IMG/VR virus record: IMGVR_UViG_3300035517_000183
Location: 1-64,000 of that record
DNA length: 64,000 bases
From: a virus
Reading direction: 5' to 3' (one strand)
The position numbers were made by a program, and so were the translations under genes. This document shows, one piece after another, positions 3,624 through 60,544 of this stretch (position 1 is the stretch's first letter; every line of letters begins with the position of its first letter). The notes beneath the pieces were generated by a model. The model searched no databases, was not told the origin of the DNA, and was given only the letters and a program-made list of their open reading frames with translations.

Positions 3624-4883
3624 TTATTCCACAGTGGGGCGAACGAAAAAACTCGCTCCACTTTGTTTTTGCATATCATCGCCGTCCGACAGTGAGTAGT
3701 CGATAATAGTTCGTATCGCTACATCGGCGTGACTTCGCATGACACGGATATAATTAAATATAGGCCGGTGTGCTGCATCTTTGATTGTTTGGCCGATAGC
3801 ATATTCAAGTACAAAAAGGGGCACACCCAATTCAAAACCGAATTGACAGAATGTTTTACGAGCCGCGTAAAATGTAAGTTGCTTTTCAAAATTCAAGGCC
3901 TTGCCGATGCGGTTAAGCGAGTGCGTCACAGAACTACGGAAATACTCGTAATTGCTGAAATTATAGCCAAAATCCAACTTGCCATCCTTGCCTATGTAGT
4001 TCGCTATTATGCTACGTGCCTCCGGCTGTATGGTTATAGCGACTCGCTTTTCGCCTTGTTTTTTGTCGGCTGTCTTTTTGCGGATAAATAGCAGGCTGTC
4101 GCCGTCTAATCTTGCATCAACAATATCAGTAAGGTTAATCCCAGCGCAATAGAATGACAACATGAACAAATCACGCGCTACTACATATCTGCGCGGTTGG
4201 TCGAATTGTTGAAAATCCAACTCGCGTAACGCTTTTAATTCGGCCTTGGTAAGTGCTATATCTCTAACTGCCTTGCTTGGCATTTTATAAGCCGCGAATG
4301 GCGGTATATCGTATTTGACCGTGCCATCATTTGACGCCGCGTTGATTATTGCTTTTAAGTGGCTCATGCGTATATTTACAGTAGTCGACGAGTCGCCGCG
4401 CTTAAATAGATACTTTTCCCATGCTTTTATCACTGTTAGATTAATCTGACTTAACAGTAAGTTTTCGCCGAAACACTCCGTAAAGTATTTCAACGTGTAT
4501 TCAAGGTTACGCGCGTATGTTTTTTGGCCGTTCTCAACACACTGGGCGATATAGCGCAAAGCGTAAACGGAGAACACGCTTGAATCTTGGTTTGCGCGAA
4601 ATTTCATATACTCCTTGACTTCCGTTGCAGATAGTGGGGCTTGGCGCAAATCGTTGTAGTATTTTTCAAGGTAGCTGTTAAGCAAATTCGCCAGTTGTAA
4701 GTTCATCCATGCGGCGGACGGATTTTTGACAACTTTGCCGTTTTTCCACTCGCTTGTGGAGTTTACCTTAAACGGCGTATTAATATACGTCGTCTTACCA
4801 TTAGCCGCAATTGATATGCGGATAGTGTGTGTGCCATCTTTGTTTTGACGTGACGGCACGATGCAAAGAGAGATTACTGCCAT
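3624..4883 (-). CDS. tyrosine integrase/recombinase (Bacteroidota-type with N-terminal arm-binding domain)
   Basis: N-terminal arm-type DNA-binding-like region (NKDGTHTIRISIAANGK...). Box I ARDLFMLSFYCAGINLTDIVDAR. TFYAARKTF matches the HxxR-region pattern of IntDOT-like integrases. A tRNA 3' fragment lies adjacent. Confidence 0.75.
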   Translation of the reverse strand: MAVISLCIVPSRQNKDGTHTIRISIAANGKTTYINTPFKVNSTSEWKNGKVVKNPSAAWMNLQLANLLNSYLEKYYNDLRQAPLSATEVKEYMKFRANQDSSVFSVYALRYIAQCVENGQKTYARNLEYTLKYFTECFGENLLLSQINLTVIKAWEKYLFKRGDSSTTVNIRMSHLKAIINAASNDGTVKYDIPPFAAYKMPSKAVRDIALTKAELKALRELDFQQFDQPRRYVVARDLFMLSFYCAGINLTDIVDARLDGDSLLFIRKKTADKKQGEKRVAITIQPEARSIIANYIGKDGKLDFGYNFSNYEYFRSSVTHSLNRIGKALNFEKQLTFYAARKTFCQFGFELGVPLFVLEYAIGQTIKDAAHRPIFNYIRVMRSHADVAIRTIIDYSLSDGDDMQKQSGASFFVRPTVE

Positions 4884-10613: not shown

Positions 10614-11579
10614 ATGATTAAAGATACCATTTTAGACCTGTCCAACGAAGATTACCACAACGCGGCACCATACAACGAGTATTTAAGCTCCACGCAACTT
10701 AAATACTACGCTAAATCGCCGAAAGTGGCAAAATATATGCTGGATAACCCGCAACAAGAAAAGAGTGACGCAATGCAAGTTGGGTCACTCTTCCATTTAG
10801 CAATGGAGTTATATAAAAAGCATGGCTCGATTGATGCGTTCTACGACTCGGTGGCGATATTTATGCCACCGAAGAATCCAAAAACGGCGCAGCCTTACGG
10901 GACAACAACAAAAGCATACCAAGATGCACTGTGCAGTTTCAAAGAGTTAAACCCAAGTAAAAGCGTTGTCACCTACGAACTTGCAACCATGATTGACGAT
11001 ATGGTTGGAGTTTTAGTTAATAATGCAAGCGACACTTCCAAGCAGGTTAACAAGCTACTCCAGTGGGGTACTTCCGAAGTCAGCCACTTTGTTGAATACA
11101 AGGACTGTAAATTTAAGTATCGACCCGACCTTGAAACCAAGCAGAAGATTATCGACTGGAAAACCGTTAACACCGACGATTTAAGCGAGAAATCAATCAA
11201 TAGCATTATTTCCAAGTATGGCTACGACATAAGTGCAGCGTTCTATTTATTCATGGAACATCTCCGCACGGGAATATGGAAAACTTTCTACTGGTGTTTC
11301 GTTAGCAAGGCAATGCCTTACGACGCTGTTTTAGTCGACGCTTCGCGATGGACTTACGAGCATGACGGCGCAGATGTTGTAATGCCGCAGGTTGGGGCGA
11401 TAAAAATGAAGTCCTTGCTTGATTTACACGTCAAGTGTAGCAATGAACGTCAGTGGCCGGGTGCGGAAATCTATATACCGCAAGACCAGCATGGCCGACG
11501 CATCATGACGCCTACACCCCCACAATGGGAAATCTCGCAAGCGTCTGCAATAATTGACTTATTAGATATAGAACAATAA
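10614..11579 (+). CDS. PD-(D/E)XK family exonuclease (YqaJ/RecB-like)
   Basis: IIDWKTV matches the hhhDYKT nuclease motif. It sits immediately upstream of RecT, the classic exo + annealase pair. Confidence 0.6.
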   Translation: MIKDTILDLSNEDYHNAAPYNEYLSSTQLKYYAKSPKVAKYMLDNPQQEKSDAMQVGSLFHLAMELYKKHGSIDAFYDSVAIFMPPKNPKTAQPYGTTTKAYQDALCSFKELNPSKSVVTYELATMIDDMVGVLVNNASDTSKQVNKLLQWGTSEVSHFVEYKDCKFKYRPDLETKQKIIDWKTVNTDDLSEKSINSIISKYGYDISAAFYLFMEHLRTGIWKTFYWCFVSKAMPYDAVLVDASRWTYEHDGADVVMPQVGAIKMKSLLDLHVKCSNERQWPGAEIYIPQDQHGRRIMTPTPPQWEISQASAIIDLLDIEQ

Positions 11580-11582
11580 ACG

Positions 11583-12482
11583 ATGGAAACTGAAAATCAG
11601 CAAACAACAGAACAGCAGCCGACGCAAGCGCAAACGACTGTCATAGAGAAGAAAGAAACTTATACGCCCGAGCGAACAGCCGAAGCGATTAAAAAACTCC
11701 CGACGATTTTGCAGCCGATAAAAGGCTTGTTTGCTCAACCGTGGGAGTCATTCCGCAGTGCGTTTAAAGACCCCGCCGAAGCAGACCGCATAATGCAGCG
11801 CGAAGTGACGTATGCAGCACAAGCAATGACGAGTAACGGTTATTTAATAACTTGCGCTCAAAAATCGCCGCAACATTTCGTCGAAGCACTCAAAAACGTA
11901 GCACTGTCGGGGCTGTCACTTTCGCCGGTTTTAAAACAAGGCTACCTCGTACCGTTTAACGGCCTTGTATCATTCATACCCTCTTACATGGGTTTGATTG
12001 ACATACTCGTTAACGCCGGAATTGTCGCCAAAATAGAAGCACATTGTGTTTATAAGGGCGAGAATTACGAAATCTGTCACGGCACGGAAGAATATTTGCG
12101 ACACAATCCTAATTGGGAGAATCGCACGAAAGAAAATCTCGTAGGGTGCTACTGGATAGCTACGTTGTTAGATGGCACGAAAGTATTCGGCGACCTCTCG
12201 ATTGATGAAATCGAAGTCATTAGAAAACGTGCGCCGTCAGCAAAAAACAAATCTCCGTGGGATAGCGATTACACCGAAATGGCGCGTAAAACAGCCGTCC
12301 GACGTGGATTTAAAATGCTACCGAAGAAAGGAATCTCCGAGGATAAACTTAAATCGGTAGAAGCCGTTTTTGACTACGACGAGAAAGTTGTACAGTCATG
12401 GATTAAAAACCAAAAACAAGGTACTACCAAAAATGACTCGTTTGACGAAGATGAAACAGCAGATTATGAAGTAGTAGAATGA
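11583..12482 (+). CDS. recT: RecT-family single-strand annealing protein
   Basis: MARKTAVRRGFKMLP matches the RecT signature K-A-RR-K-LP. Size 299 aa and the position after the exonuclease fit. Confidence 0.7.
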   Translation: METENQQTTEQQPTQAQTTVIEKKETYTPERTAEAIKKLPTILQPIKGLFAQPWESFRSAFKDPAEADRIMQREVTYAAQAMTSNGYLITCAQKSPQHFVEALKNVALSGLSLSPVLKQGYLVPFNGLVSFIPSYMGLIDILVNAGIVAKIEAHCVYKGENYEICHGTEEYLRHNPNWENRTKENLVGCYWIATLLDGTKVFGDLSIDEIEVIRKRAPSAKNKSPWDSDYTEMARKTAVRRGFKMLPKKGISEDKLKSVEAVFDYDEKVVQSWIKNQKQGTTKNDSFDEDETADYEVVE

Positions 12483-14998: not shown

Positions 14999-15185
14999 AG
15001 TCAGAAAGAAATCGGTAAAGCCTTGTTTGGGCTTTCAATTTTCTAAAGCAGATGAAATAAAAATCAAACTCGCTTGCATTTCCGCTCGCAATTTCATGCG
15101 CAACTACGGCAAAGGCAAACGAATGCAAATGGTAGATTTAAGACATTACTGTAACACAATTAACGAATTAGATTATGCAAATTAA
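14979..15185 (+). CDS. hypothetical protein
   Basis: 68-aa basic ORF. Confidence 0.3.
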   Translation: MEQTKSRVRKKSVKPCLGFQFSKADEIKIKLACISARNFMRNYGKGKRMQMVDLRHYCNTINELDYAN

Positions 15186-15597
15186 GGTAAAGAGGCTCTC
15201 GCCTTATGCAGTATTGCCGTATAAGGCTCACGACTCGGATGCGGGATTTGACCTCACTGCGATTTCGCGCAAGACAGACAAAAACGAGAATATTGTTTAC
15301 GGCACCGGTCTTGCATTTGAAATCCCGGAGAATCACGTTGGCTTGATTTTTCCTCGTAGTTCAAACGCCACGACCGACTTACGGCTCACAAATTGCGTAG
15401 GCGTACTTGATAGTGGTTATCGTGGCGAAGTGCTGTTTAAATTCCGACCGACAGCGTTACCGACAAAGATATATGCCGTTGGCGATAGAATAGGGCAGTT
15501 AATTGTAATCCCCTATCCTAAAGTCGAATTTATTGAATCTAACGAATTAACCGACAGCGACCGCGGTGCCGGTGGTTATGGCAGCAGCGGGCGATAG
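15175..15597 (+). CDS. dut: dUTP diphosphatase (dUTPase)
   Basis: Motifs AGFDL, PRSS, LDSGYRGE and RGAGGYGSSG are the canonical dUTPase motifs I-V. Confidence 0.9.
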   Translation: MQIKVKRLSPYAVLPYKAHDSDAGFDLTAISRKTDKNENIVYGTGLAFEIPENHVGLIFPRSSNATTDLRLTNCVGVLDSGYRGEVLFKFRPTALPTKIYAVGDRIGQLIVIPYPKVEFIESNELTDSDRGAGGYGSSGR

Positions 15598-15802
15598 CGA
15601 TATGGATAAGATTACTCGACTTTTATTGTGGGCGGCAAGTTTCTGTGTCGCCATAACAGTTGCGGGTGGCTTGCTTTCACAAGCCAACACAATTTCTAAC
15701 ATAGCGGGAGTATTACTTACAATCTTCTGGCTGTGGTTTTCAATCAAAACAAGATGTTTTACTCAATTCTCCAATCTCCTAAAAAGAAAGAATAACAAAT
15801 GA
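15566..15802 (+). CDS. small membrane protein
   Basis: 78-aa ORF, two TM helices. Confidence 0.4.
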   Translation: MPVVMAAAGDSDMDKITRLLLWAASFCVAITVAGGLLSQANTISNIAGVLLTIFWLWFSIKTRCFTQFSNLLKRKNNK

Positions 15803-16584
15803 AAAAGTTTTTATTTCTCGCATTGGCCGCTTCGGCGATGTTAATTAATTCATCGTGCGCCGAACGCATTGACGCCGGGCATGAGGGTATTAAAGTCAAC
15901 CTTTATGGCGACGACAAAGGCATAGGCCAAGTATCAATGTGTACTGGTATGGTGTGGTACAATCCGATAACCACAGCCATTTACGAGTACCCTACATTTG
16001 TGCAAACGGTAGATTACGAGCCATTCACGATTAACGCAAAGGATGGTTCAGAGTTTACCGTAGACCCGACAATCTCACTCAAAATTATTGACGGAAAATC
16101 CCCCGAGGTTTTTAGGAAATACCGCAAAGAACTTAAAGATGTAGTCAATACGACTCTTTATAATTACGTTAAGAACGCTTTTCGTATTCAGTTGAATAAT
16201 TTTACAACCGATTATATTGTAAGCAACCGCGACAGTATTGAGTCGGCGATTGAGCGATATTTGACCGCAGACCTACTAAAAGAAAATTTTCAATTAGAGC
16301 AGTTGACATCAGGGCTCAAATATCCCGAAACAATCGTTAAGGCCGTCAACGAAAAGAATCGCAAAATCCAAGAAGCGCAAGCGGCTGAAAACGAAGTGCG
16401 AGTGGCCGAAGCAAAAGCCAAGTCAATACTCGTAGCAGCGCAAGCCGAGGCCGAAGCAAACCGAATTAAACAGCAAGCCTTGACGCCTCAAATTCTCGAA
16501 AAGATGTGGATAGACAAATGGGATGGTAAACTCCCCGTCTACGGTCAAACGCCGAACCTATTTAAGGATATAACGCGAAAATAA
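15799..16584 (+). CDS. SPFH/band-7 (stomatin/prohibitin-like) lipoprotein
   Basis: Signal peptide with lipobox (LINSSC). SPFH-like core followed by an Ala/Glu-rich coiled coil (AEAKAKSILVAAQAEAEANRIKQQ). Confidence 0.65.
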   Translation: MKKFLFLALAASAMLINSSCAERIDAGHEGIKVNLYGDDKGIGQVSMCTGMVWYNPITTAIYEYPTFVQTVDYEPFTINAKDGSEFTVDPTISLKIIDGKSPEVFRKYRKELKDVVNTTLYNYVKNAFRIQLNNFTTDYIVSNRDSIESAIERYLTADLLKENFQLEQLTSGLKYPETIVKAVNEKNRKIQEAQAAENEVRVAEAKAKSILVAAQAEAEANRIKQQALTPQILEKMWIDKWDGKLPVYGQTPNLFKDITRK

Positions 16585-16862
16585 TGGCAGGCACATATTT
16601 ACTCTCCGCGCTTTTAGTTGCCACTCTTTATTATGTGATTAAGAACTCCGAAAGAAGTTACGGAAAGAATAAAGAACTTGTAATTGAGCGGAAGTACGCC
16701 ATTGTAGTTCTTATAGTATTTGCACTTCCGGTCGTCAATGTCGTTTTCCCGCTTGTGGCTCTTGTCGCATTGTTTCTTGTAGCGCATGAGGGCGACATTA
16801 AGTTAAAAGACAACGGCTCAAAATTAAAGCAAATATCCGATTGGCTTTCCAAACCTTTATAA
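16584..16862 (+). CDS. small membrane protein (possible NfeD-like partner of SPFH)
   Basis: 92-aa ORF with two TM helices, start-stop coupled to the SPFH gene. Confidence 0.4.
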   Translation: MAGTYLLSALLVATLYYVIKNSERSYGKNKELVIERKYAIVVLIVFALPVVNVVFPLVALVALFLVAHEGDIKLKDNGSKLKQISDWLSKPL

Positions 16863-16941: not shown

Positions 16942-19134
16942 ATGACATACCAAGACGTACTCGAAAAGAAGAAAGTTCACCGAGTAGACTTAGGATTTGA
17001 GCCTACAAACATGAATCCCGCCCTTTTCGATTTTCAGCAGTTTTGCGTTACCAAGATGTGCAAGATGGGCAAGGGCGCGGTCTTTGCAGGATGCGGTAAC
17101 GGCAAAACAAACATACAATTGGAGTGGGCGACGCAAGTTGCAAACCACGAAAACAAGCCGGTACTCATATTGGTGCCGCTATCCGTCAGTCGTCAGACGA
17201 TTGCCGAGGGTAAGAAATTCGGCTACACTGTCACGCCATATAAAGATATGGACGCCCACACCAAGATAGCGATAACGAATTACGAGCAAATTGAAAACAT
17301 AGACGTAAGTCAGTTTGTCGGCATTGTCCTTGATGAATCGGGAATCTTAAAAGCATTCACAGGGCATTATAAACGGCTACTGATAGAACGCTTCAAAGAT
17401 ACAAAATACAAACTTTGTTGCACCGCGACGCCCGCCCCGAATGACCTTAACGAATTGGGCAACCACTCCGAGTTTCTTGACGTTTTGGATGCACAAGATA
17501 TGCGCTCTAAATGGTTTGTTCGAGAAGAAGGCATGAACAACTATCGACTCAAACATCATGCCAAACAAGATTTCTACGGATGGATAGCTTCATGGGCGAT
17601 AATGTTTGAGAATCCCGCCGACATCGGATTTAAGGAAACCGGAGCAAAGTTTAAACTTCCGAAACTAAATTATTACCAGCACGAAATAACAACACAGCCG
17701 AAAGACGGGCAACTGTTTGCAAGCGGAATTGTCAACGCAACGAACTTCAACGCCGAACTCCGCAATACGATGGAGCAGCGACTACAATGTGTTAAGGAAA
17801 TAGCCGAGCAACACCCCGACGAGCAAATATTGATATGGGTTAAACAGAACGTCGAGGGCGAACGGTTACGCGAATTAATCCCCGAAGCAATTGAAGTCAA
17901 AGGCAGCGACAACGACGCAATTAAAGGACAACGCTTGCTTGATTTTGCAAGCGGTAAAATCAGAATACTAATATCCAAGGCGAAAATATGCGGCTACGGC
18001 ATGAACTTTCAGAGTTGTGGCTTGCAGATATTTTGCGCTCCCGACTTCTCCTTTGAGGACTTTTACCAACAAGTGCGTCGCAGTTACCGATTTGGGCGAC
18101 ATGGCGACGTGAATATTCATCTAATTGTGACAGATACAATGGCAAACGCTAAAGCGGTAATTGAAAAGAAACAAGCCGTATTTGATGAAATGTTGCGCGA
18201 GATTAACCGCAATGTTAACGAGAAACACTACGGATTACTTAATGACTACGAGTATAAAGAATACAGGGATGATAATGTATTCTTAATGAAAGGCGATACG
18301 ACGATTGAAATTAAGCGAATCCCCGACAATTCAGTGGACTTGATTATATTCTCGCCACCTTTCAGTTCATTGTTTACATACTCGAACTATATCCATGATA
18401 TGGGCAACAATGAATCTCACGAACAATTCTTTGAACAATACGCTTTCTTGCTGAAAGAACTCTACCGCGTATTAAAGCCGGGTCGCCTCATGTGCTGTCA
18501 TACAAAAGATTTGGGCGTTTACAAAAACTCGTCAGGTTATACGGGTATGTTTGATTTTACCGGCGAACACACACGAGCCGTTTTGGCGGAGAACTTTAAA
18601 CTGCACTCCAAGGTAACGATATGGACAGACCCCGTACTTGAAATGCAACGCACCAAAACGCAACGTCTATTATACAAGCAAGTAACGACGGATAGTTCAA
18701 AGACTGGAATTGGGATGGCGGAATATATAACAATATTCAAAAAGTGGGATGGCGACGAAGAAGATTACGAGCCTATCACCAACCTCAATAAATCCAACTT
18801 TCCGCTTGACGTATGGCAAAAGTGGGCGTCGCCCGTATGGATGGATATAAAACGTACTGACGTACTAAATGGTGCAGAGGGTACGGCGCAAGGCGACGAG
18901 AAACACATCTGCCCATTACAGTTAGGTGTAATAGAAAGGCTTGTTCAACTGTGGTCTAACGAGGGTGAAGTAATATTTACGCCGTTTTTAGGCATTGGCA
19001 GCGAAGTTTACGAGGCTGTCAGACTGGGGCGTAAAGGCATTGGCTGTGAACTCAAAGACAGCTACTTTGACGTCGCAGTCAAGAATATCAAGAAAGCGGA
19101 AGCGTTGCGATGTGAAAAATCATTATTCGACTAA
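16942..19134 (+). CDS. SNF2/DEAD-like helicase :: DNA methyltransferase (N4-C/N6-A beta class) fusion
   Basis: N-terminal helicase motifs GCGNGKT, LDESG, TATP and QQVRRSYRFG. C-terminal methyltransferase motif IV SPPF (IFSPPFS), then motif I FTPFLGIGSE...GRKGIGCE, the circularly permuted order typical of beta-class amino-methyltransferases. Confidence 0.75.
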   Translation: MTYQDVLEKKKVHRVDLGFEPTNMNPALFDFQQFCVTKMCKMGKGAVFAGCGNGKTNIQLEWATQVANHENKPVLILVPLSVSRQTIAEGKKFGYTVTPYKDMDAHTKIAITNYEQIENIDVSQFVGIVLDESGILKAFTGHYKRLLIERFKDTKYKLCCTATPAPNDLNELGNHSEFLDVLDAQDMRSKWFVREEGMNNYRLKHHAKQDFYGWIASWAIMFENPADIGFKETGAKFKLPKLNYYQHEITTQPKDGQLFASGIVNATNFNAELRNTMEQRLQCVKEIAEQHPDEQILIWVKQNVEGERLRELIPEAIEVKGSDNDAIKGQRLLDFASGKIRILISKAKICGYGMNFQSCGLQIFCAPDFSFEDFYQQVRRSYRFGRHGDVNIHLIVTDTMANAKAVIEKKQAVFDEMLREINRNVNEKHYGLLNDYEYKEYRDDNVFLMKGDTTIEIKRIPDNSVDLIIFSPPFSSLFTYSNYIHDMGNNESHEQFFEQYAFLLKELYRVLKPGRLMCCHTKDLGVYKNSSGYTGMFDFTGEHTRAVLAENFKLHSKVTIWTDPVLEMQRTKTQRLLYKQVTTDSSKTGIGMAEYITIFKKWDGDEEDYEPITNLNKSNFPLDVWQKWASPVWMDIKRTDVLNGAEGTAQGDEKHICPLQLGVIERLVQLWSNEGEVIFTPFLGIGSEVYEAVRLGRKGIGCELKDSYFDVAVKNIKKAEALRCEKSLFD

Positions 19135-19158
19135 CATAAATCAAACAACAGATTACTC

Positions 19159-19992
19159 ATGGAAACATCCAAACTAACAACACGAGTCGAGGTTATTACT
19201 CCCGAACAAGCGCGAGAATACCTCAAAATGAACACCACCAACCGACCACTCAGTAAGGGCTTAGTGGAACGATACGCCGCAGAAATGCGAGGGGGGGGGT
19301 GGAAAACCAACGGCGAGGCGATATGCTTTGCGGAGAACGGCGCACTCTTTGATGGGCAGCACCGACTCAGCGCGATAATAAAAGCGGGAGTGCCCGTTGA
19401 AATGCTTGTTGTCCGAGGCTGCGACAACGACAGTTTCATGACCTACGACTCAGGCAAGACAAGAACAGCCGCCGACGTGATGGGAGCGCTGGGCGTAGTA
19501 AGTTCCACGTGTGTGGCCGGAATTGTACGCCGCTATATCCTCATGCGCGACGGCCTTGCTTTAGCAACGATTGATGGGCGAAAAAAACAAAGTAAAAACC
19601 ATTGTAATGTTGCCGATTTGTATAAATTCTATCAGCGACATACTCAACTGGTAGAGTCAACATTAAGACTCGTCCAAAGGCTGAATAAAAAGGCACGTTT
19701 CTACCAAATACTCGAATTGGGCGGAATGGTGTTATATCTTGTCTTAGAAAAGAGTTACGACTTTGATTTTATCGCCGAATTTCTTGAACAGTTGCACACG
19801 GGTTATAATATCACCAACAATACAATCCTTGTCTTGCGCAACAGATTAATTCAAGACGGTTTCGCTACTAACAAGATGGATAAAGTCGCAAAATCGGCGT
19901 TGTTAGTCAAGACGTGGAACGCCTATGTTTCAAAGAAAGAGTATCAAAGATTGGCATATAACCCCGCAGATGAATTGCCTAAATTTATTTAA
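19159..19992 (+). CDS. ParB-like nuclease domain (DGQHR) protein; contains G9 tract
   Basis: GALFDGQHRLSAII is the ParB/Srx DGQHR motif. A G9 homopolymer at 19291-19299 encodes GGG in frame. Confidence 0.65.
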   Translation: METSKLTTRVEVITPEQAREYLKMNTTNRPLSKGLVERYAAEMRGGGWKTNGEAICFAENGALFDGQHRLSAIIKAGVPVEMLVVRGCDNDSFMTYDSGKTRTAADVMGALGVVSSTCVAGIVRRYILMRDGLALATIDGRKKQSKNHCNVADLYKFYQRHTQLVESTLRLVQRLNKKARFYQILELGGMVLYLVLEKSYDFDFIAEFLEQLHTGYNITNNTILVLRNRLIQDGFATNKMDKVAKSALLVKTWNAYVSKKEYQRLAYNPADELPKFI

Positions 19993-20001
19993 TATCAAAA
20001 T

Positions 20002-20277
20002 ATGGAAGAATCCACCGAGTATGGGCGCGAAGTAGCATATATTGCTGTTCCGCCGTATAAATCGGCACTTGAAACAGAGATTGGCGGTAATCATTATCGC
20101 CAATTCTCTATTCAGCCGATAGAGTTTATTCAGAAAAATAAACTTGACTTTCTGCAAGGGTGTATAATCAAATACATTTGCCGTTTCCGCCAAAAGAACG
20201 GTCAAGAAGATTTGTTGAAAGCCAAGCATTATATTGACTTATTGCTTGAATTAGAGTATGGCTGTCAACCATTGTAG
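20002..20277 (+). CDS. hypothetical protein
   Basis: 91-aa ORF between the ParB-like gene and the methyltransferase. Confidence 0.35.
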   Translation: MEESTEYGREVAYIAVPPYKSALETEIGGNHYRQFSIQPIEFIQKNKLDFLQGCIIKYICRFRQKNGQEDLLKAKHYIDLLLELEYGCQPL

Positions 20278-21016
20278 GCTCGTAACCTTGTTTTCGGGCT
20301 ACGACTCGCAAGCACTTGCAATGCAACGGCTTAAAAATAATTTCCCCGACGACTTTGATTTTGAACTCGTTGCGTGGTGCGAAGTCGATGCAGCGGCGAT
20401 TAAGGCTCATGATGCGCTGTTTCCTCAATGGAAAGACCGAAACTTAGGCGACATAACAAAGGTTAATCCCGCCGACGTCCCAGACTGCGACTGTATTACA
20501 TGGTCGTTCCCTTGCCAAGCAATTTCAACGGCGGGACAGCAGAAAGGCATGAAATCGGGCAGCGGTACAACATCATCGCTCGCATGGGAGTGCATCAAGA
20601 TTTTTAAGGCGAAGCGACCGAAATATCTACTCATGGAAAACGTCGCAGCGATAACGCACAGGCAATTCAAGTCTGACTTTGCCGAACTCCGCGAAACAAT
20701 AGCACAATTAGGCTATCGAAACTATTATCAGTTACTCAACGCAAAGGACTACGGAGTGCCACAAAATAGGCTACGTTGTTTCATGGTATCAGTCCGCGAC
20801 GATGGCGACAACCCAAGTTACACGTTCCCCGAGCCGATTAACAGTACGGTCGACTCGAAAGATGTAAGGGCGTTGTTAGAACCTGCGGAAGATGTTGACG
20901 AAAGCCAGTACATAGCCACTTTGCGAGTCACCGAAGATTCGTTGCTTGAAATCTTAGAGCAACCGGGCGTTTACGAGCAATTATTACAAGTGTACTACAT
21001 GGAAAACAACCGATAA
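20258..21016 (+). CDS. DNA cytosine-5 methyltransferase, N-terminal part (motifs I-VIII + start of the target recognition domain, TRD)
   Basis: LFSGYDS (motif I), FPCQAIS (PCQ, motif IV), ENV (VI), QNRLRCFMV (VIII). Ends with tandem stops TAA TGA. Confidence 0.8.
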   Translation: MAVNHCRLVTLFSGYDSQALAMQRLKNNFPDDFDFELVAWCEVDAAAIKAHDALFPQWKDRNLGDITKVNPADVPDCDCITWSFPCQAISTAGQQKGMKSGSGTTSSLAWECIKIFKAKRPKYLLMENVAAITHRQFKSDFAELRETIAQLGYRNYYQLLNAKDYGVPQNRLRCFMVSVRDDGDNPSYTFPEPINSTVDSKDVRALLEPAEDVDESQYIATLRVTEDSLLEILEQPGVYEQLLQVYYMENNR

Positions 21017-21052
21017 TGACAACACAGATACCTATAAACCTAACGAAAGGTA

Positions 21053-21280
21053 ATGATAAAACAGATACCAATAAATCTTTGTCGCGGAGTCAGTTGCATC
21101 GTAAGGGCAAATCCGGGTGTACAATCCGCTTACAACTTACTGACTGCCCCCCCCCAGATTCCGACAAACAGCCGTTCTGTGTGTAGATGTATCACGGCGC
21201 ATTATGCCAAATTCGGTTACAGCGAAATATTCGGGCGATACCTACCCCCCCCCGCAGTCCTAACTATTAAGAGTAGATAA
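21053..21280 (+). CDS. spacer ORF between the methyltransferase halves; both C9 tracts encode PPP
   Basis: 75-aa ORF in the same frame as the upstream methyltransferase ORF. Its stop overlaps the ATG of the downstream ORF (TAATG). Coding status uncertain. Confidence 0.25.
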   Translation: MIKQIPINLCRGVSCIVRANPGVQSAYNLLTAPPQIPTNSRSVCRCITAHYAKFGYSEIFGRYLPPPAVLTIKSR

Positions 21281-21828
21281 TGGCAAACGACATTTTTCCT
21301 ACGCCGATACATAAACTACGCTCGCAGCAATTAAAAGAACTCCGTAAGATGGGCGTTGAGAAATTCGGCAGAAGATTATTAGTACCGCGGTTTGACGGTG
21401 TATGCGGCACCATTACGGCAACTCAAACAGACAGTTTAATCATGGAACTCAAAGAACGAACAGACTCAAATAACTATGCCGGACAGCCGACCAAACAAGA
21501 GTTAATAGCCTACTTCGGCGACCGATTGCGAGTGCGCAAATTCACTCCCACGGAAGCCTTTAGGCTGATGGACTTAACTGATGCGGATATTGAGAAAATA
21601 CAAGCCTACCCATTTGCTACTATGGCGGAGCGCAAAGCGGTACTCTCGCAACTTTCTGAAAACTCTCCCGAGCGGCGCAAAATTACACGCGACAGTATTT
21701 GCAAGACGCAGCAATACCACCTTGCGGGCAATTCAATCGTTGTCAGTTGCTTGTATTACATCTTTAAGAGTATGTATATAGCGCAATCGGGTCAAGAGTC
21801 ACACCAACAGTTAACTCTTAGCCTATGA
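21280..21828 (+). CDS. DNA cytosine-5 methyltransferase, C-terminal part (TRD remainder + motifs IX-X)
   Basis: RKFTPTEAFRLMDLTD (motif IX) and HLAGNSIVVSCLYYIF (motif X). Confidence 0.7.
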   Translation: MANDIFPTPIHKLRSQQLKELRKMGVEKFGRRLLVPRFDGVCGTITATQTDSLIMELKERTDSNNYAGQPTKQELIAYFGDRLRVRKFTPTEAFRLMDLTDADIEKIQAYPFATMAERKAVLSQLSENSPERRKITRDSICKTQQYHLAGNSIVVSCLYYIFKSMYIAQSGQESHQQLTLSL

Positions 21829-35896: not shown

Positions 35897-36048
35897 AAAG
35901 TCAGACTCAGACTCCGTTTTGGTTAAAACTTTGCGCGTGTAAAATTGGTGGAAATTTGTGGGGTAGGATTGCGTGAGATACCCCCCCCATCGGTGTAAAG
36001 CTCTGTGTATGAGCCTATTGTGCGTGATAATATTGCCATGATAATAAT

Positions 36049-50035: not shown

Positions 50036-52822
50036 TTGGGAATGGCGTTTAAATTTGTTAACAACAGTATTTCATTACCGAATCTATACCCGACAGTCAC
50101 TCGAAAACTCCCCACGGTTAAAGATAAAAACGGCTGGGCGCAGGTCGGTGACTTCAAGTTGCGCAACTCGGTAGACCTAATTCCGCAGCCGGGATTACAA
50201 GAGAATCTTTGTGCTTGCGAAGCAAACCTTGTATTCATTTGTGGTGCAGCCACATCAGGCAAGGCACAGCCATACGATGCAAAAGTGCTTACACCGCGCG
50301 GTTTCGTAGAGATGGGGTCGCTTCGGGTTGGCGACACAATAACCGGCTCAAACGGGAAGCCTCAAACGATATTGCGCATATTTGAGCAAGGCGAGCGGGA
50401 TGTCTGTGAGTTGAAATTCGCGGATGGCAGCGTTGTTGAGTGTGACTACGAACACTTGTGGAATGTCACAGCGACAAGGGCTAAATGTTCACACATTAAT
50501 ACAATTCTAACTACAAATCAAATAATAGAAGAGCTTAAAGGTCGTGGCGTAGATTATGGCAGTATTAGAAATATATACGTACCACTGCCCAATCCAATAG
50601 AGTTTGACTGCAACGAAAACTTGCCGCTTAGCCCATATTTGCTGGGCGCGATACTCGGTGATGGTTGCACCCGTATAAAAGATTGTAAGCCTCGAATATA
50701 CACGCCAGATACAGAGATATTAGACCGAATTAGGGCTGATGGGTACGATGTCAAACGCATCCCGTCCTCTGATTGCGGCTGGACTTTTGAAAATCACAGT
50801 GTGAAAGACTCGCTTGTAACTTTAGGACTTTGGAATTGCCTGTCTTACGACAAGTTTGTCCCGGACGCGTATTTAAAAGCGAGCGTTTACGATAGGCTTG
50901 CACTATTGCAGGGTTTATTAGATACAGACGGGAGTGTTTCATACAAGAGTTTGGCGGAGTATTCCACTTCAAGTTGCAAACTGGCAACGCAAGTCAGGGA
51001 TTTGGTGTTTTCCTTGGGTGGGTATTGTTATATGTCAGCACGAATACCCAAATATACCTACAATGGCAATAAAAAAGATGGGCATAAATCATACAGGTTG
51101 TTTATTTCATTCGCCAATCAGCAGCAAGCGTTCTCTATTAGCCGCAAAAAAGACAAATGCACGACACAGAGAAACACTCGATATTGCAACGGCAGAAGAA
51201 TAGTCGATTACAAGTATATCGGCAAAAAGCAGTGCAGGTGCTTGCTTGTGTCTAACCCCGACCACTTATACATCACTAACGATTATATTGTCACGCATAA
51301 TACTTTTGGAATGTATATGACAGCACTCTACGGCGTTGACAAAAACGGATTTACGTCTATTCTATTCTCGTTCCGCGAAAAAGATAGCAAAAAAGGCTCA
51401 TCAATCTTCCGTGACGGCGTTGAGGTGCTGGGGAAAATGAAAGGCTGTGAGTATGCCTCATCAGACAATATTAGTTTCCGTTTCCCAAAATCAAACTCGC
51501 AGTTGCAACTTGCGAATTTCAATTATAATGTTGCGAATCCCACCGAGTGGAGCGACTTCAAAGAGGATATGAAGAAAAAGCAGGCGAGCCTTATCATGGT
51601 CGACGAAGCAACGAAGATGCAAGAAAAGGCCTTGCTTTATATCTTCTCGCGTAACCGTGACGGCTCGGGAATGCAACCGCAAATGATTTGTTCTTTTAAT
51701 CCCGAAAACGAGCATTTTACTACTGACGTAATAAAAGCGGCGGGCTTTCTTGATAGCGGATGGCACGTGCGTAAAGAAATGGAGGGTAGGCTTATATATT
51801 TCTTTATGAAAGGTAAGTCGTTCAAAGATGCAGTCTGGGGATTAACACCCGAAGATGTCGCGGCTCGAGCGGGTATTGAAATCTCGCAAAAAGACCGCGA
51901 AGCAGGACTGACAGAAGCCGACATGGTTAAGTCATTCACGGTGTTTACGGGCGAGGCGTCTGAAAACAGAATCCTTGTAGCCATTACCGGCGGTCAGTCG
52001 GTTGCGAATCTATATGCTGTCGGCAAAGAGCAGAGCGACATTTTGAAACGCGCATATTTCGGCCCCATCCAAAAAGAGGATATAAACGTCAGCAAACAGA
52101 TGATTTTACAGTTATGGGAGAATCCTATTGACGACGATGAAAATATGTACGCCACATTGGACGTTTCAGGCGGTTCGCTTGAAAGTGATAATACTCCGAT
52201 GGTGATATGGCGAGGCTCGCAAGTCATTGATATTAAATTCTTCCGAGGCGACTCGAAGCAATTAGTCGATTGGATAGACGCAATGTTAAACACTTACAAT
52301 ATTCCCGTTGAGAATTTTGCATACGACGCAACGGGCATAGGTTACTATCTACGCGCTTACACTTCGGGGCGACCGATAACAGCCAATAAACGGTGCTTGC
52401 AAGAGTATGACAGCAATGGCAATCCGGTGCAAATTGACGAGTATTTTAATCTTCGCTCGCAATTACTCGGCAAAACAGAGGTCATGCTTAAAAAGGGTGA
52501 AATCTCGTTTGCTATCGACCAAAATAGCGTAATCCCCTACGGCAAAAACGGTCAGTCGCGTAGGCTTATAGATGTGCTTTCGGATGAAATAGCCGTGTTC
52601 TCTACGTCTACGCGCAACAAGAAAATATACTACCGTTCAAAGGATGAATACAAGGCAAAATACGGCTCGTCGCCCGACTTGATAGACGCCATTTCATACA
52701 AGGCCGTATTCATGCTTGACACGCGAGGCAGAAAACAGCCCGCAACAGTCAACTCTGACGAAGCTTATAACGCCCTTTGGAGTGGATATGCTCCGCGCTC
52801 GGTTGGTCGTGGATGGTGGTAG
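50036..52822 (+). CDS. terL: terminase large subunit interrupted by an intein
   Basis: Removing residues 77-422 reconstitutes the Walker A motif GAATSGK|T. A TAtaTTTG promoter element lies at 50008-50015. Confidence 0.85.
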   Translation: MGMAFKFVNNSISLPNLYPTVTRKLPTVKDKNGWAQVGDFKLRNSVDLIPQPGLQENLCACEANLVFICGAATSGKAQPYDAKVLTPRGFVEMGSLRVGDTITGSNGKPQTILRIFEQGERDVCELKFADGSVVECDYEHLWNVTATRAKCSHINTILTTNQIIEELKGRGVDYGSIRNIYVPLPNPIEFDCNENLPLSPYLLGAILGDGCTRIKDCKPRIYTPDTEILDRIRADGYDVKRIPSSDCGWTFENHSVKDSLVTLGLWNCLSYDKFVPDAYLKASVYDRLALLQGLLDTDGSVSYKSLAEYSTSSCKLATQVRDLVFSLGGYCYMSARIPKYTYNGNKKDGHKSYRLFISFANQQQAFSISRKKDKCTTQRNTRYCNGRRIVDYKYIGKKQCRCLLVSNPDHLYITNDYIVTHNTFGMYMTALYGVDKNGFTSILFSFREKDSKKGSSIFRDGVEVLGKMKGCEYASSDNISFRFPKSNSQLQLANFNYNVANPTEWSDFKEDMKKKQASLIMVDEATKMQEKALLYIFSRNRDGSGMQPQMICSFNPENEHFTTDVIKAAGFLDSGWHVRKEMEGRLIYFFMKGKSFKDAVWGLTPEDVAARAGIEISQKDREAGLTEADMVKSFTVFTGEASENRILVAITGGQSVANLYAVGKEQSDILKRAYFGPIQKEDINVSKQMILQLWENPIDDDENMYATLDVSGGSLESDNTPMVIWRGSQVIDIKFFRGDSKQLVDWIDAMLNTYNIPVENFAYDATGIGYYLRAYTSGRPITANKRCLQEYDSNGNPVQIDEYFNLRSQLLGKTEVMLKKGEISFAIDQNSVIPYGKNGQSRRLIDVLSDEIAVFSTSTRNKKIYYRSKDEYKAKYGSSPDLIDAISYKAVFMLDTRGRKQPATVNSDEAYNALWSGYAPRSVGRGWW
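50264..51301 (+). mobile_element. intein with LAGLIDADG homing-endonuclease domain (346 aa) in the terminase P-loop
   Basis: Hint N-block AQPYDAKVLTPRG...VGDTI. Two LAGLIDADG motifs (LLGAILGDG, LQGLLDTDG). C-terminal IVTHN followed by extein Thr. Unusual Ala at intein position 1. Confidence 0.8.
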
Positions 52823-52829
52823 CTAAACA

Positions 52830-54512
52830 GTGAGTTTTATAAAACAGAGAGTGAATATGTACATATCAGAACTATTAGTAAAAGATTTTTGGTATCGGCG
52901 CGTAAATGCCGACGCCGTTACAATTCCAAATCCGACAAATCCAAATGGCTATCGTCACGTGAATTTTACGGATGGAATCCGCAGACGCGCCCTTACTAAC
53001 GATGATTTTATCAACGAGTTAGAACTTACGGCGCACGAAATCAACTCGCGCTATTGGTCGACTCGTCCTATTCGCGAAATACGAGAGCGTGATGTCGTGC
53101 TTGAAGATGGCGCAAAAAAGAAAGTCAAAGAGTGGGCGGTTACAGGCTATGACGACATGGAAACAGTCCGACTCGGTTTTCAAAAGCGTTTTTCAATGGC
53201 GAAAGCGTCCTTTTTTGCGGCCAACGGCTTTAATATAAGCAACGAAACCACCGACAGCAAGAGTTATGATACTTTGATGTCATGGAAAGATATCGCAGGG
53301 CTTGACGTGGGCTTTTTCGAGTTGGTTCAGTCGTGCTTCCAAAGCGGCGACGCAGCAATCTATCTTTACCAGACCGGCAACACGATAGAATACAAGGTTT
53401 TTTCGTCACTCTATGGTGATAAACTGTATTTTCACTATGACGAGAATTTTAACCCGGTCGGCGTAAGGGAATATACGTTGCGAGGCCAACGCGCAGTCGA
53501 TATTTACCGCGTATCTTCCGTTGAAACATGGGTGCAAATCAACCCCGAGGACGAAAAGACAAAATCATGGGTAAACAAAGTCGGCGGATGGTTTGCGCGT
53601 GGTATAGACTGGCATACTTCCGCTGTTAGCGAGGATGGATGGCGCAGAATTGCTAACCGAGAGAATCAGATAGGAGACAAACTCAATCCGTTTATCTATT
53701 TCAGAATTAACGATGTTGTGTGGGGGTCGGCGCAAGAAGATATAAGCGGACTTGAACGAGCAATGAGTTATGTTGCAGAGGAAAGCAAAAACATCGCATT
53801 TCCAGATATGTTCGTCAAGGCTACTAAAATTGACAATATGCCCGCTATCGGAGCGCACGGACGCACATGGGCAGCTCGCGGAACGGCAGATGAAATAAAA
53901 GCGGCTGACGTTAAGGCGATTGAAAAACCAAACATGAGCGACATTGCCACCGTAGACCTCAAAAACCGTCTTGACAGTATTCTACGCACCACCATGAGCG
54001 TATTTATTGACCCCGAGATAGTCAAATCAAGCGATATAAGCGGCGTGGGAATTAAAGTCTTGTACGGTCCCGAAATTCAGTTTGCACAAAATATGTGGCC
54101 GCAATTCTATTCGCAACTCAAATATATGGTCGAAGTGTTTAAGGCTTTAGTTGCCAAGATAGAGAAAAACGGCGCAATCGCAACGCTGCGGACTTCTATT
54201 TGGCAAGAGATTTATCTACCCGAAGATGAAGCAGCCAAAGTAAAACTCGAACTCGACCAATTATACGCAAGAGCAAAATCGCGTAAGGCTGTCATGGCCG
54301 ACTTGAATAACCAGCATTTGGGCGACGCAGAGCAAATCATCAAAGAATGGATTGAAGAACTTGACATTAAGGCTCGCATTCCAGCCATTGCTTCCGCGGA
54401 AGTACAAGCGGAGTACGGTGAGGGCGACCAATCGGCTCAGGTTAATGATGAAATCGACCCCAATAGGCCTAATATAACAAATCAAGCCGCAGGAATCTCC
54501 GTATTGGAGTGA
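52830..54512 (+). CDS. portal protein
   Basis: 560 aa immediately downstream of terL. Confidence 0.6.
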   Translation: MSFIKQRVNMYISELLVKDFWYRRVNADAVTIPNPTNPNGYRHVNFTDGIRRRALTNDDFINELELTAHEINSRYWSTRPIREIRERDVVLEDGAKKKVKEWAVTGYDDMETVRLGFQKRFSMAKASFFAANGFNISNETTDSKSYDTLMSWKDIAGLDVGFFELVQSCFQSGDAAIYLYQTGNTIEYKVFSSLYGDKLYFHYDENFNPVGVREYTLRGQRAVDIYRVSSVETWVQINPEDEKTKSWVNKVGGWFARGIDWHTSAVSEDGWRRIANRENQIGDKLNPFIYFRINDVVWGSAQEDISGLERAMSYVAEESKNIAFPDMFVKATKIDNMPAIGAHGRTWAARGTADEIKAADVKAIEKPNMSDIATVDLKNRLDSILRTTMSVFIDPEIVKSSDISGVGIKVLYGPEIQFAQNMWPQFYSQLKYMVEVFKALVAKIEKNGAIATLRTSIWQEIYLPEDEAAKVKLELDQLYARAKSRKAVMADLNNQHLGDAEQIIKEWIEELDIKARIPAIASAEVQAEYGEGDQSAQVNDEIDPNRPNITNQAAGISVLE

Positions 54513-58993: not shown

Positions 58994-60544
58994 TTAAGCA
59001 TTTTCAATTAAATTACCCAAGTCGTCAGTGTCTATGCCGAGCCGACCGACACAGTATTCATAGCCGGCTGACATTCGGCGTATATTGCCGAGTTTAACGT
59101 CAAAGCCCTTACTTTTAAGCATATCGGCAATCTCCCGTCGGCGTTTAATCACCGTGTAGCCACACTCGTCGGCATAAGCGCGATACTCCTCATAAAGCGA
59201 GCCTAAAGAACGCCATCGAGGGTCTTTCTCACGCGGAGTTTCAACGCGCGTATAATTATACTCGCTCCACCAACAACGGCCACTGTTACTATGGTCTTGA
59301 AGTGCCCTTTGAGCGGCCAAAACATCCTCGCCGAGAATTATATTACCGCCGTTTCTAATCAACTTGCGATACCCCTCGTAAATCCACGTAAAAATATACT
59401 GACGCGCATCGTCAGTGGTTAACTTAAAAGCCAAATACGGGTCTTTATCTTTTTCGCCCCATTGATAGCTCGTAGTATAAATCCCCAACTGCCTACGGTG
59501 ATGACCCCAGCTATCATCCGACGACTCGGGAATCTCATTGGCGCAGCATAGAATAGGCGGAAAATCAACCGAAATAGGGTCGCCATAGTTTCTACGCCCT
59601 TGAAATTTCTCACCCGAAATAGCGCGTTTAAAATCACCGCCACTAATATCTTTGGCGTCTAAATCTCCAACAAGATTTATAAGCTTGCCCTGAAGTGCAG
59701 CGATATTAACCCTCGCATCAGAGTCTTTAAATAACTGTTTAAGCGAAAAATGGCTTATATATTCCTCACCGAAAACACCCGTAATGGCACTGGCTAAAAC
59801 CGACTTGCCGTTACTGCCGGGGCCGACAAGATAAGCAATATACTCAAACTTAACCTCGTTTCTATCCGCTAACAAAATGCCACAAAACATCTGAAACGCA
59901 TCGCGCATATCTTTATTGGGCAAAATCTCAGTGATTTTACGCTCCCAAAGACGAGCCGGATTATTATCATTCAAGCCATACTTGCTCGCATAGTCTTTGA
60001 CTAATACAGCCGAATCTTTACAGTCTATGTTAAGTGCAATATGCGGCTTATAATTAATGCTGAAATCCCTGACACGACCATCTTTTAAGTCAAAAACGCC
60101 GTTCTTAAAAGCAATATAGCGTTTATTAGGCCTATAAGCAAACTCATCAGAACTGGTAAGCGTATAACAACATATCTTTGCGATTTTTTCAGAAGCATTA
60201 TACTGATAATTAGACCCGACTTCAAGCAGCCTGAACGCACGGCGTATTAACTCTTGAAGAAATCTAATAGGATTTAAATTAATCTTCTCAAAATATGCGC
60301 CGTTATAAGCGTATATCGTCTGATTGTCATCGCCGACTAAAATCCTGCGCTCGGTGTCGTAGCATATAAAATTCTCAATTAACTCGGTTAATAATAATTC
60401 GCGCCACGGCTGATAAACTTTATCATACATTCCGAATCTACGCAACTCGGGATATTTGCCTTTGCTATGCGTGGCTTTATATTTGGCGGTCATGCTGTCG
60501 GCTAACCACCGCGATAAATACTCGTATGTCTTTGCAGATGTCAT
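58994..60544 (-). CDS. SF3 helicase (D5 / P4-primase C-terminal family NTPase)
   Basis: LVGPGSNGKS Walker A in the context typical of P4/D5-family replicative NTPases; 516 aa. Confidence 0.7.
   Translation of the reverse strand: MTSAKTYEYLSRWLADSMTAKYKATHSKGKYPELRRFGMYDKVYQPWRELLLTELIENFICYDTERRILVGDDNQTIYAYNGAYFEKINLNPIRFLQELIRRAFRLLEVGSNYQYNASEKIAKICCYTLTSSDEFAYRPNKRYIAFKNGVFDLKDGRVRDFSINYKPHIALNIDCKDSAVLVKDYASKYGLNDNNPARLWERKITEILPNKDMRDAFQMFCGILLADRNEVKFEYIAYLVGPGSNGKSVLASAITGVFGEEYISHFSLKQLFKDSDARVNIAALQGKLINLVGDLDAKDISGGDFKRAISGEKFQGRRNYGDPISVDFPPILCCANEIPESSDDSWGHHRRQLGIYTTSYQWGEKDKDPYLAFKLTTDDARQYIFTWIYEGYRKLIRNGGNIILGEDVLAAQRALQDHSNSGRCWWSEYNYTRVETPREKDPRWRSLGSLYEEYRAYADECGYTVIKRRREIADMLKSKGFDVKLGNIRRMSAGYEYCVGRLGIDTDDLGNLIENA

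Follow-up and report, generated by a model that had tools for sequence, protein, structure and literature searches.

Does a viral gene that joins a helicase to a DNA methylase and stands next to a ParB-like gene belong to an anti-restriction module of the kind known from phage P1? The question is raised by positions 16942–19992 of the first 64,000 nucleotides of the IMG/VR record IMGVR_UViG_3300035517_000183 (the window, by which we mean the whole of this 64,000-nucleotide stretch). An earlier note, made from the sequence, had proposed here a DarB-like self-modification module in which the fusion, the ParB-like gene and a split C5-cytosine methylase formed a three-gene epigenetic island. We find instead that the fusion belongs, judged by its sequence, to a widespread phage family that already carries a name, and that the ParB-like gene is separate from it. 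The locus as a whole is best explained by translocase-coupled self-methylation of the phage DNA, a reading to which we give a probability of about 0.6. The two genes in question and the two halves of the first are as follows.

16942–19134, + strand: gene of the 730-residue ‘DNA helicase/methylase’ fusion (PF00176, PF00271, PF01555; phrog_16)
16942–18237, + strand: SNF2-like superfamily 2 (SF2) ATPase/translocase half of the fusion, residues 1–432 (SNF2-rel_dom, Helicase_C, ResIII)
18238–19134, + strand: beta-class amino-methyltransferase half of the fusion, residues 433–730 (PF01555; PADLOC MTase_II)
19159–19992, + strand: gene of a 277-residue ParB/Srx-fold protein (phrog_5931), with an N-domain at residues ~1–100 and an all-helical C-domain at residues 104–257

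The claim that SF2 helicase motifs and a beta-class amino-methyltransferase are combined in one protein stood up to searches with the hidden Markov models (HMMs) named in the earlier note, N6_N4_Mtase and SNF2_N/Helicase_C, the SNF2 model supporting it marginally. In Pfam, N6_N4_Mtase (PF01555) scores 76.5 bits (cutoff 26.7) over residues 465–713, covering positions 1–220 of the 221 in the profile. Helicase_C scores 27.9 bits against a cutoff of 23.5 and SNF2-rel_dom 25.0 bits against 24.9, whilst ResIII, at 19.4 bits, falls under its cutoff of 22.5. The PHROG family phrog_16, ‘DNA helicase’, spans the whole protein (2.8e-76), and the PADLOC model MTase_II matches the methyltransferase half (6.8e-33).

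The motifs agree with the profiles. In beta-class enzymes motif IV, (D/S)PP(Y/F), comes before motif I, FxGxG, which binds S-adenosylmethionine (PMC7544214, PMC10406627). In the fusion, SPPF (residues 471–474, nt 18352–18363) lies N-terminal to FLGIGS (residues 682–687, nt 18985–19002), the order that had been read from the translation, and both score and motif order thus predict a beta-class DNA amino-methyltransferase. For the SNF2 group we looked for an N-lobe HMM match, a Helicase_C match and motifs I, II, III (TxTPxxN) and VI (QxxxRxxRxGQ). Besides the two profile matches, of which SNF2-rel_dom is only marginal, the protein has GCGNGKT as motif I (nt 17089–17109), LDESG as motif II (nt 17329–17343), TATPAPN as motif III and QQVRRSYRFGR as motif VI, and is predicted to be an SF2 ATPase of the SWI2/SNF2 type. 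Scans with Pfam, NCBIfam, PHROG and PADLOC found no nuclease or further domain in the fusion, and the linker between its halves is only ~30–50 residues long; the statement that no nuclease sits between the halves, and with it the preference for something other than restriction–modification of type III, is therefore upheld.

The closest solved structures to the methyltransferase half are TTHA0409 and N4CMT (PDB 2zie, 4.8e-16; 8s9n). Because S-P-P-Y stands at motif IV in both, and N4CMT has been verified to act on N4-cytosine (PMC10406627), N4-cytosine is probably the target base. The suggestion that SPPF itself marks an N4-cytosine enzyme is made plausible by these SPPY structures and by the invariance of SPPF described below; the part that does not sit well with it, a set of matches to adenine-specific families, is weighed with the other contrary points.

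How common is such a protein? A search that took in 5.8 billion proteins gave at least 7,748 significant matches of the same architecture. More than 100 full-length metagenomic relatives are 75–84% identical with an identical Pfam architecture, and the close relatives found in genome collections are prophages in Prevotellaceae, Muribaculaceae, Sodaliphilus, Bacteroides, Mediterranea, Tannerellaceae and Dysgonomonadaceae. Among isolated phages there are 409 matching records. The 306 that match over at least 80% of the protein infect Actinobacteria, Bacteroidota, Cyanobacteria and Proteobacteria, the genera Mycobacterium (147), Flavobacterium (85), Arthrobacter (27), Pseudomonas (23) and Synechococcus (14) being among their hosts. 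Annotators have called the product ‘DNA helicase/methylase’ in Arthrobacter phages BillyTP (gp76), Seahorse (gp83) and Anekin, ‘DNA methylase N-4’ in Mycobacterium phages Saal (gp68), Cornie and Spartacus, and ‘SNF2 family helicase’ elsewhere. Members of this phrog_16 family share the arrangement of the fusion, a beta-class N6_N4 methyltransferase behind an SNF2-like ATPase, and its motifs. The named relatives, among them Synechococcus phage S-CBS3 and Flavobacterium phage FCV-1, are 30–42% identical to the fusion over 95–100% of the protein, and the difference lies in the host, which for the window is Bacteroidales. The gene is among the commonest genes of phage replication modules and is already named in curated annotations; its ParB-like neighbour is not part of the unit.

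Conservation within the family is informative about both halves. The helicase/methyltransferase junction is at a constant place across 80 related loci. Some mycobacteriophage members have the halves as separate adjacent genes, or bear an intein, whereas the fusion of the window is one open reading frame (ORF). That the two halves are separate neighbours in cluster-F mycobacteriophages, for example Ramsey gp65/gp66, speaks for a functional dyad and against fusion by chance. Among close relatives the methyltransferase half is better conserved than the helicase half (83–92% against 68–81% identity), SPPF is invariant in 75 of 75 relatives, and FxGxG is invariant too, from which we take catalysis to be under selection. 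Conservation across 73–77 relatives extends to helicase motifs I, II, III and VI.

Two further features of the family were seen in passing; loci of relatives are designated L, with coordinates counted in each locus. Several close relatives encode SPPF as TCC-CCC-CCC-TTC, giving a C8 run at the active site (L094:7415–7422, L096, L103, L195:5415–5422, L198, L199:4478–4485), where the window has TCG-CCA-CCT. Inteins (Hint/Intein_splicing, some with LAGLIDADG) break the helicase or the methylase half of some homologues: they were seen in protein P0218, as inserts of ~930 nt after helicase residue ~130 in L113, L114 and L117, and as an insert in the methyltransferase half in L143. Inteins in mycobacteriophage methylases have been described earlier (PMC5050341).

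We propose the following sequence of events. The fusion would be made early, in a replication/recombination operon that also holds RecE-like, RecT and dUTPase genes. Its SNF2-like ATPase would act as a double-stranded DNA translocase, moving along phage DNA that has just been replicated or is recombining and bringing the methylase processively to its target sites. Methylation, probably as N4-methylcytosine (m4C), would in this way cover the entire genome of the phage before packaging and would shield it from restriction in the next host, with the adjacent C5 methylase adding a second, independent protective mark. Coupling of ATP-driven tracking to methylation is suggested by the conserved SNF2 motor together with the invariant methyltransferase motifs, and the early gene context and the conservation of the halves, fused or adjacent, support it. 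A model of translocation-coupled protective methylation has been put forward for DarB, and the coupling of an SNF2 translocase to a DNA amino-methylase was reported to be widespread in phages outside the polyvalent proteins (PMC5512222). The invariant SPPF leads to a testable prediction, namely that phages of gut Bacteroidales, actinobacteria and cyanobacteria methylate their own DNA to m4C in a translocase-coupled manner.

Several points weigh against this explanation. The SNF2-rel_dom score barely passes its cutoff, and NCBIfam gives weak, sub-threshold matches of the fusion to adenine-specific families. That ATPase and methylase act jointly on the same DNA is something we infer, and the helicase might serve replication or recombination independently. 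No functional study of any member of the fusion family came up in literature searches. The function proposed for the ParB-like protein, finally, is read from its fold and context.

That protein was described in the earlier note as a ParB/Srx protein with a DGQHR motif. The motif is present (nt 19351–19365), and its residues G66, H68 and R69 are invariant in the family, in whose proteins, at least 473 in number, Pfam recognises no domain; the ORF matches phrog_5931, to which no function is assigned there, at 2.4e-61. The fold call is right at the level of the superfamily, since the neighbours of the protein in BFVD include mycobacteriophage proteins annotated as ‘ParB-like nuclease domain protein’ or ‘HTH DNA binding domain protein’. 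We accordingly place the ORF in the ParB/Srx (ParB-CTPase) fold superfamily, with an Arg in the phosphate-binding (Box II-equivalent) motif. The more specific assignments did not survive. Pfam, ParB_N (PF02195) included, gave no match at E ≤ 10, so that the ParBc expectation failed; NCBIfam, including TIGR03187, and PADLOC were negative at E ≤ 0.01; and searches of the PDB with phmmer and with a profile of 49 family sequences were both negative. The ddrB-ParB model PF18763 did not match the protein, while P1 DdrB matches it at 2.1e-39. Links to DndB and to ddrB-ParB thus fall away for want of a model match.

The nearest counterparts are stand-alone phage ParB/Srx proteins of phrog_5931, such as WIVsmall gp36 and Avocado gp42, to which the protein is 25–34% identical; they share the N-domain fold, the Arg motif at the phosphate-binding position and the early-gene context. 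There is no fused methylase, unlike the common phage fusions of ParB with an N6_N4 methyltransferase, and ParB-type folds in phage proteins bind CTP, ATP or GTP (PMC12704722). Annotators of homologues label the helical C-terminal domain as DNA-binding, and among the genes annotated in the window none resembling ParA was detected. On the best reading we have an independent early protein that acts on DNA, made up of a ParB-fold switch that would bind NTP and of a helical domain.

Is it nevertheless a partner of the fusion? Co-occurrence was counted in 98 fusion loci, 80 of them totalling 825 kb and 18 from Bacteroidales genomes, and in 80 ParB-like loci totalling 1.03 Mb. The ParB-like gene was found in 0 of the 80 and 0 of the 18 fusion loci, and a fusion homologue in one of the 80 ParB-like loci, ~8 kb away from the ParB-like gene. 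N6_N4-like sequences and C5 methylases each occurred twice in the 80 ParB-like loci. A Pfam census of 147 immediate same-strand neighbours showed no dominant partner of the ParB-like gene and no methyltransferase in the top 25 families, the recurrent ones being AAA_25/DnaB_C, YqaJ, DUF3799, ANT, HTH and a second ParB_N. In many unrelated phages the company of the gene consists of genes for replication, recombination and regulation; individual loci have it adjoining integrases, NinG with a DEAD helicase, RecE/RecT, or immunity genes. Behind the fusion, the closest relatives have either a TROVE protein and a C5 methylase or an SMC-like ATPase. Of the 98 loci, 19 have a C5 methylase at a distance of no more than a few kb from the fusion, often directly downstream (L001–L005, L094–L212). 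Loose clustering of methylases therefore exists, yet there is no three-gene module, and only this looser association remains of the proposed island. The ParB-like gene is an unrelated early gene that stands beside the methylase by accident of gene order, and the slot downstream of the fusion looks like a site of variable cargo. The TROVE-domain (Ro60-like) protein just mentioned, of 479 residues, lies between fusion and C5 methylase (L001:10653–12092, L002:4264–5703), where the window has its ParB-like and DUF3310 genes.

Of the other explanations for the locus, the one that survives best concerns the DNA from 19.2 to 21.8 kb, where the split methylase and a group of long homopolymers lie:

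19291–19299, + strand: G9 homopolymer in the ParB-like ORF, encoding the Gly-Gly-Gly of ‘MRGGGW’
20258–21016, + strand: N-half of a C5-cytosine methyltransferase, 252 residues, motifs I–VIII (PF00145, 160 bits, profile positions 2–208; TIGR00675, 155 bits)
21016–21280, + strand: cassette region between the C5 halves, made up of a remnant unit (21016, ‘MTTQIPINL..’) and a 75-residue ORF (21053–21280)
21147–21155, + strand: first C9 tract of the cassette ORF, homologous to the C9 tract of L004 and the C8 tract of L005
21245–21253, + strand: second C9 tract of the cassette ORF
21280–21828, + strand: C-half of the C5-cytosine methyltransferase, 182 residues, motifs IX–X (phrog_116, 1.8e-12; PF00145 weakly, profile positions 299–322, E = 0.035)

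On this explanation the region is a phase-variable contingency locus, whose tracts change length at high frequency and thereby switch the ParB-like gene ON and OFF and swap the cassette of the C5 methylase that resembles a target-recognition domain (TRD), diversifying methylation within the population. We regard it as possible, and it is compatible with translocase-coupled self-methylation as the role of the fusion.

The split of the C5 methylase, claimed from the translations, is real by the profile and motif assignments above. In the C-half we read from the sequence a TRD-like ‘GVCGTITATQ’, motif IX as ‘RKFTPTEAFRLMDL’ and motif X as ‘GNSIVV’. The methylase is split also in the closest relatives, whose N-halves are 45% and C-halves 37% identical to those of the window. 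M.AquI is a split C5 methyltransferase with alpha and beta subunits, and M.EcoHK31I has a beta subunit of 61 residues. As in M.AquI, motifs I–VIII and IX–X of the window enzyme are on separate polypeptides; both are predicted to be intact and are conserved, and we assign the enzyme to this split form. Two other accounts of the gap were rejected. As an intron or other RNA, it found in Rfam, searched over 16–23 kb, only a sub-threshold L20-leader match; and stop-codon recoding does not fit the several different stops that follow the N-half or the use of TAA as a normal stop elsewhere. One related locus has an intein that interrupts the C5-methylase N-half (L175:1702–3552).

The gap itself measures 264 bp, and TAATG stop/start overlaps at both its ends tie the cassette region to the two halves. 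Its 75-residue ORF contains a pair of TRD-like cores, VSCIVRANPGVQSAYNLL and CRCITAHYAKFGYSEIF. Three or four G/C 8–10-mers, ~130 bp apart, occupy the gap in the closest relatives, and six-frame analysis resolves the arrays into tandem units of ~130 bp. The junction of each unit is dual-coded, one frame giving ‘..AILVIDDTDTD*’ and another ‘M-I-Q-I-P-I-N..RGG’. After the junction comes the homopolymer and then a core of the pattern ‘[VI]xx[CT][VI]xxH[YW]xKxGxxx[IL]L..AILV[IV]D’. The core is mostly one base out of frame from the ATG of its own unit, and one added G restores ORFs of 49–57 residues. Arrays were located at 21016–21280 in the window, L002:6716–7110, L004:7054–7560 (also in L005), L175:3478–6200 and L178:3526–4520. 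Distant phage C5 methylases have the same layout with up to 14 tracts (L175; also L171, L176, L177 and L178). A strict scan of IMG/VR, asking for three G8 tracts at the cassette spacing, gave 12 loci, of which ~5 are low-complexity artefacts, with clean arrays between C5 halves in L184, L186, L188 and L193.

The composition of the tracts bears on whether they are incidental. The G9 tract noticed in the ParB-like gene is indeed there, and a change of ±1 would truncate the product at ~50 residues. The window has four G/C runs of at least nine, where ~0.13 would be expected for independent, identically distributed bases, and three of the four fall within 2 kb. GGG is the rarest Gly codon of the phage (10.2%), and its three other GlyGlyGly sites use mixed codons. 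Because GGG is rare and only the GlyGlyGly of the ParB-like gene is written as G9, the homopolymers are not a by-product of codon usage. No tract of the G9 type was found in the ParB-like genes of the 80 other loci; the G9 may belong to the same contingency strategy as the C5 cassettes. Other long C runs are a C9 at 118–126, just upstream of an ORF at 164–568, and a C8 at 35981–35988, between structural-gene ORFs on the minus strand.

Variation between assemblies also favours switching. L001 and L002 show no substitutions over 7,126 bp and differ solely in one tract, G7 against G10. The same is true of L004 and L005 over 4,685 bp, where the tract is C9 against C8. The C8 allele gives a natural ORF of 140 residues that joins a cassette to motifs IX–X, whereas the C9 allele cuts the ORF at 44 residues. 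Relatives hold 3–14 tracts of 7–11 nt at the same place between the C5 halves. There is, moreover, a phage precedent for poly-G phase variation, in Campylobacter phages (Sorensen et al. 2021, Cell Rep 35:109214, as it is cited in PMC12823448). On the other side, the tracts of the window are identical in the only other assembly (L180), possibly from the same reads, and noise in consensus or assembly might account for the differences in tract length from one assembly to another.

The identity of the cassettes is the other point at issue. We call them TRD-like on their position and pattern. An HMM built from the cassettes matches the window at 1.5e-14 and 2.7e-08, the units of the window being in its training set, and its significant matches lie only within its own lineage. 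Searched as TRDs, the cassettes were negative in Pfam, and PDB alignments end at motif VIII. When the units are aligned locally to E. coli Dcm, three of eight fall on its TRD segment, with z ≤ 2.4 only, so that homology to TRDs is unsupported by these searches, which counts against the contingency locus. The arrays could be decaying remnants of multispecific methylases. The motif IX–X region of the C-half matches the SPR, rho11s and SPbeta methylases at E ~1e-4, among weaker phage matches. These SPR-type Bacillus phage enzymes (M.SPRI, M.Rho11sI, SPbeta) have, like the window, tandem TRD-like modules between motifs VIII and IX. Unlike those of split or multispecific C5 enzymes, however, the modules of the window type are mini-ORFs of ~45–75 residues with their own ATG, dual-coded junctions and frame-setting G/C homopolymers.

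Tentatively, then, this may be an undescribed architecture in which two C5 halves flank alternative TRD-like cassettes with frames gated by hypermutable G/C tracts, and in which slippage, replicative or transcriptional, would sample specificities as a hedge against Bacteroidales restriction. Literature searches found no description of homopolymer-gated TRD arrays. The poly-G tracts of the Campylobacter phages, as that work is represented in the later paper, resemble those of the arrays described here in being runs of 8–10 G/C nucleotides in coding regions whose length varies between otherwise identical genomes; they differ in lying in receptor-binding genes, the tracts here being in a methylase cassette array of a Bacteroidales phage. 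Phase-variable Mod and Type IIG methylases of Campylobacter, Helicobacter and Neisseria have one tract with simple ON/OFF switching, whereas here there are many tracts along a cassette array. If the cassette arrays are functional switches, they would be a new viral route to diversified epigenetic camouflage, and homopolymer phase variation would extend from the receptor-binding proteins of Campylobacter phages and bacterial Mod genes to the specificity of phage methylases. The homopolymer-punctuated array near the fusion is a more interesting lead than the fusion itself.

A second alternative takes the fusion to be primarily a motor of replication or recombination, active in fork remodelling or in branch migration with RecE/RecT, its methylase marking or recognising phage DNA for replication timing, packaging or the distinction of self from non-self. 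The genes that bear on it, with the small gene downstream of the ParB-like one, are:

10614–11579, + strand: RecE-like PDDEXK gene, early block
11583–12482, + strand: RecT, early block
15175–15597, + strand: dUTPase, early block
15799–16584, + strand: SPFH/Band-7 protein of 261 residues, early block
20002–20277, + strand: small DUF3310 protein of 91 residues, between the ParB-like gene and the C5 methylase (PF11753, 1.7e-13)
58994–60544: D5_N/DUF5906 primase-helicase

Nearness to the RecE-like and RecT genes is in favour of such a motor, as are the intact and conserved helicase motifs, the placing of the fusion by PHROG with ‘DNA helicase’ in the nucleotide-metabolism category, and the occurrence of helicase-only homologues in phages of Staphylococcus, Streptococcus and Paenibacillus. 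Set against this are the greater conservation of the methyltransferase half with its invariant catalytic motifs, and the presence of another helicase in the phage. Since that separate D5_N/DUF5906 primase-helicase is present, we conclude that the fusion is not the replicative helicase. Orphan phage methylases are, besides, classically protective. A primarily motor role thus seems to us rather improbable, less so than the readings that follow.

These are far weaker. The first is the one from which the question started, a packaged methylase-helicase of the DarB type with a ParB-like partner, injected with the DNA and protecting it in cis. The DarB dyad has been defined among the polyvalent virion proteins as an EcoKI/TaqI-like adenine methyltransferase with an SNF2-clade ATPase at its C terminus and an LPD36 N-domain, and P1 pairs DarB with the ParB-domain protein DdrB (PMC5512222). 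The likeness is that in DarB, as in the fusion, a single nuclease-free polypeptide carries a DNA amino-methylase together with an ATPase of the SNF2 clade. In our searches, P1 DarB (2,255 residues) matches N6_Mtase/Eco57I (PF02384, PF07669) at residues 145–290, SNF2-rel_dom at 849–911 and Helicase_C at 1455–1517. Its methyltransferase is thus gamma-class and lies N-terminal to the SNF2 region, whereas the fusion matches PF01555 only, which is beta-class, and has the domains in the reverse order. DarB has extra polyvalent-protein domains, for which a protein of 730 residues has no room. BLASTP of the fusion against DarB aligned only a stretch of 80 residues around helicase motif I (E = 1.5e-4) and showed no methyltransferase similarity (E = 0.14), and the ParB-like protein gave no alignment with P1 DdrB at E ≤ 10, besides failing to match PF18763. 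Gene context differs likewise: DarB is a late, virion-packaged head protein that needs DarA, Hdf, DdrA and DdrB, and P1 darB abuts the portal gene and late genes, whereas the genes at issue here are in an early operon, far from the structural genes and on the opposite strand. With the ParB-like gene absent from the fusion loci and the fusion present in a single ParB-like locus, as counted above, the ‘DarB-like’ label does not hold; on membership this explanation is largely refuted, and we consider it very improbable.

Equally improbable is that the fusion is the motor–methylase core of a prophage defence system (Type III, Type ISP or DISARM/BREX-like) with its nuclease encoded elsewhere, since, although helicase and methylase are typically paired in Type I/III/ISP enzymes (PMC5512222) and the sub-cutoff ResIII match and a very weak dnd-restriction match point that way, no nuclease domain was found in the fusion or its conserved neighbours, the PADLOC matches are to the generic MTase_II on the methyltransferase half with no defence-system helicase, lytic and temperate phages of many phyla have the gene in their conserved core, unlike host-defence cargo, and its predicted domains do not place it with Type III or Type ISP systems.

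The setting of the locus is that of a temperate phage. The window has a Bacteroidota-type integrase (3624–4883) and a resolvase (1944–2699), and we take it to represent a temperate siphophage or prophage of Bacteroidales of ~65 kb. Megablast of the region against 50,697 phage records gave no match, which points to an uncultured phage. Besides the genes listed above, the early block on the + strand takes in the fusion, the ParB-like and DUF3310 genes, the C5 methylase and YopX, and the structural genes lie at 24–50 kb on the other strand. The genes across 16942–21828 are spaced by 24 nt or 9 nt or overlap, and from this tight packing co-transcription is likely. A scan for sigma-70 promoters and terminators gave no signal above shuffled sequences, the model being unsuited to Bacteroidota.

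Just upstream of the fusion (15799–16862), the SPFH/Band-7 protein is followed by a protein of 92 residues that appears hydrophobic, judged by eye from the translation; such a pair is unusual for a phage replication operon. Further along the window, the + strand ORF of 928 residues at 50036–52822 has a LAGLIDADG_3 match at residues 288–357 and adjoins an ORF of 560 residues at 52830–54512; it may be a packaging or structural gene that contains an intein.

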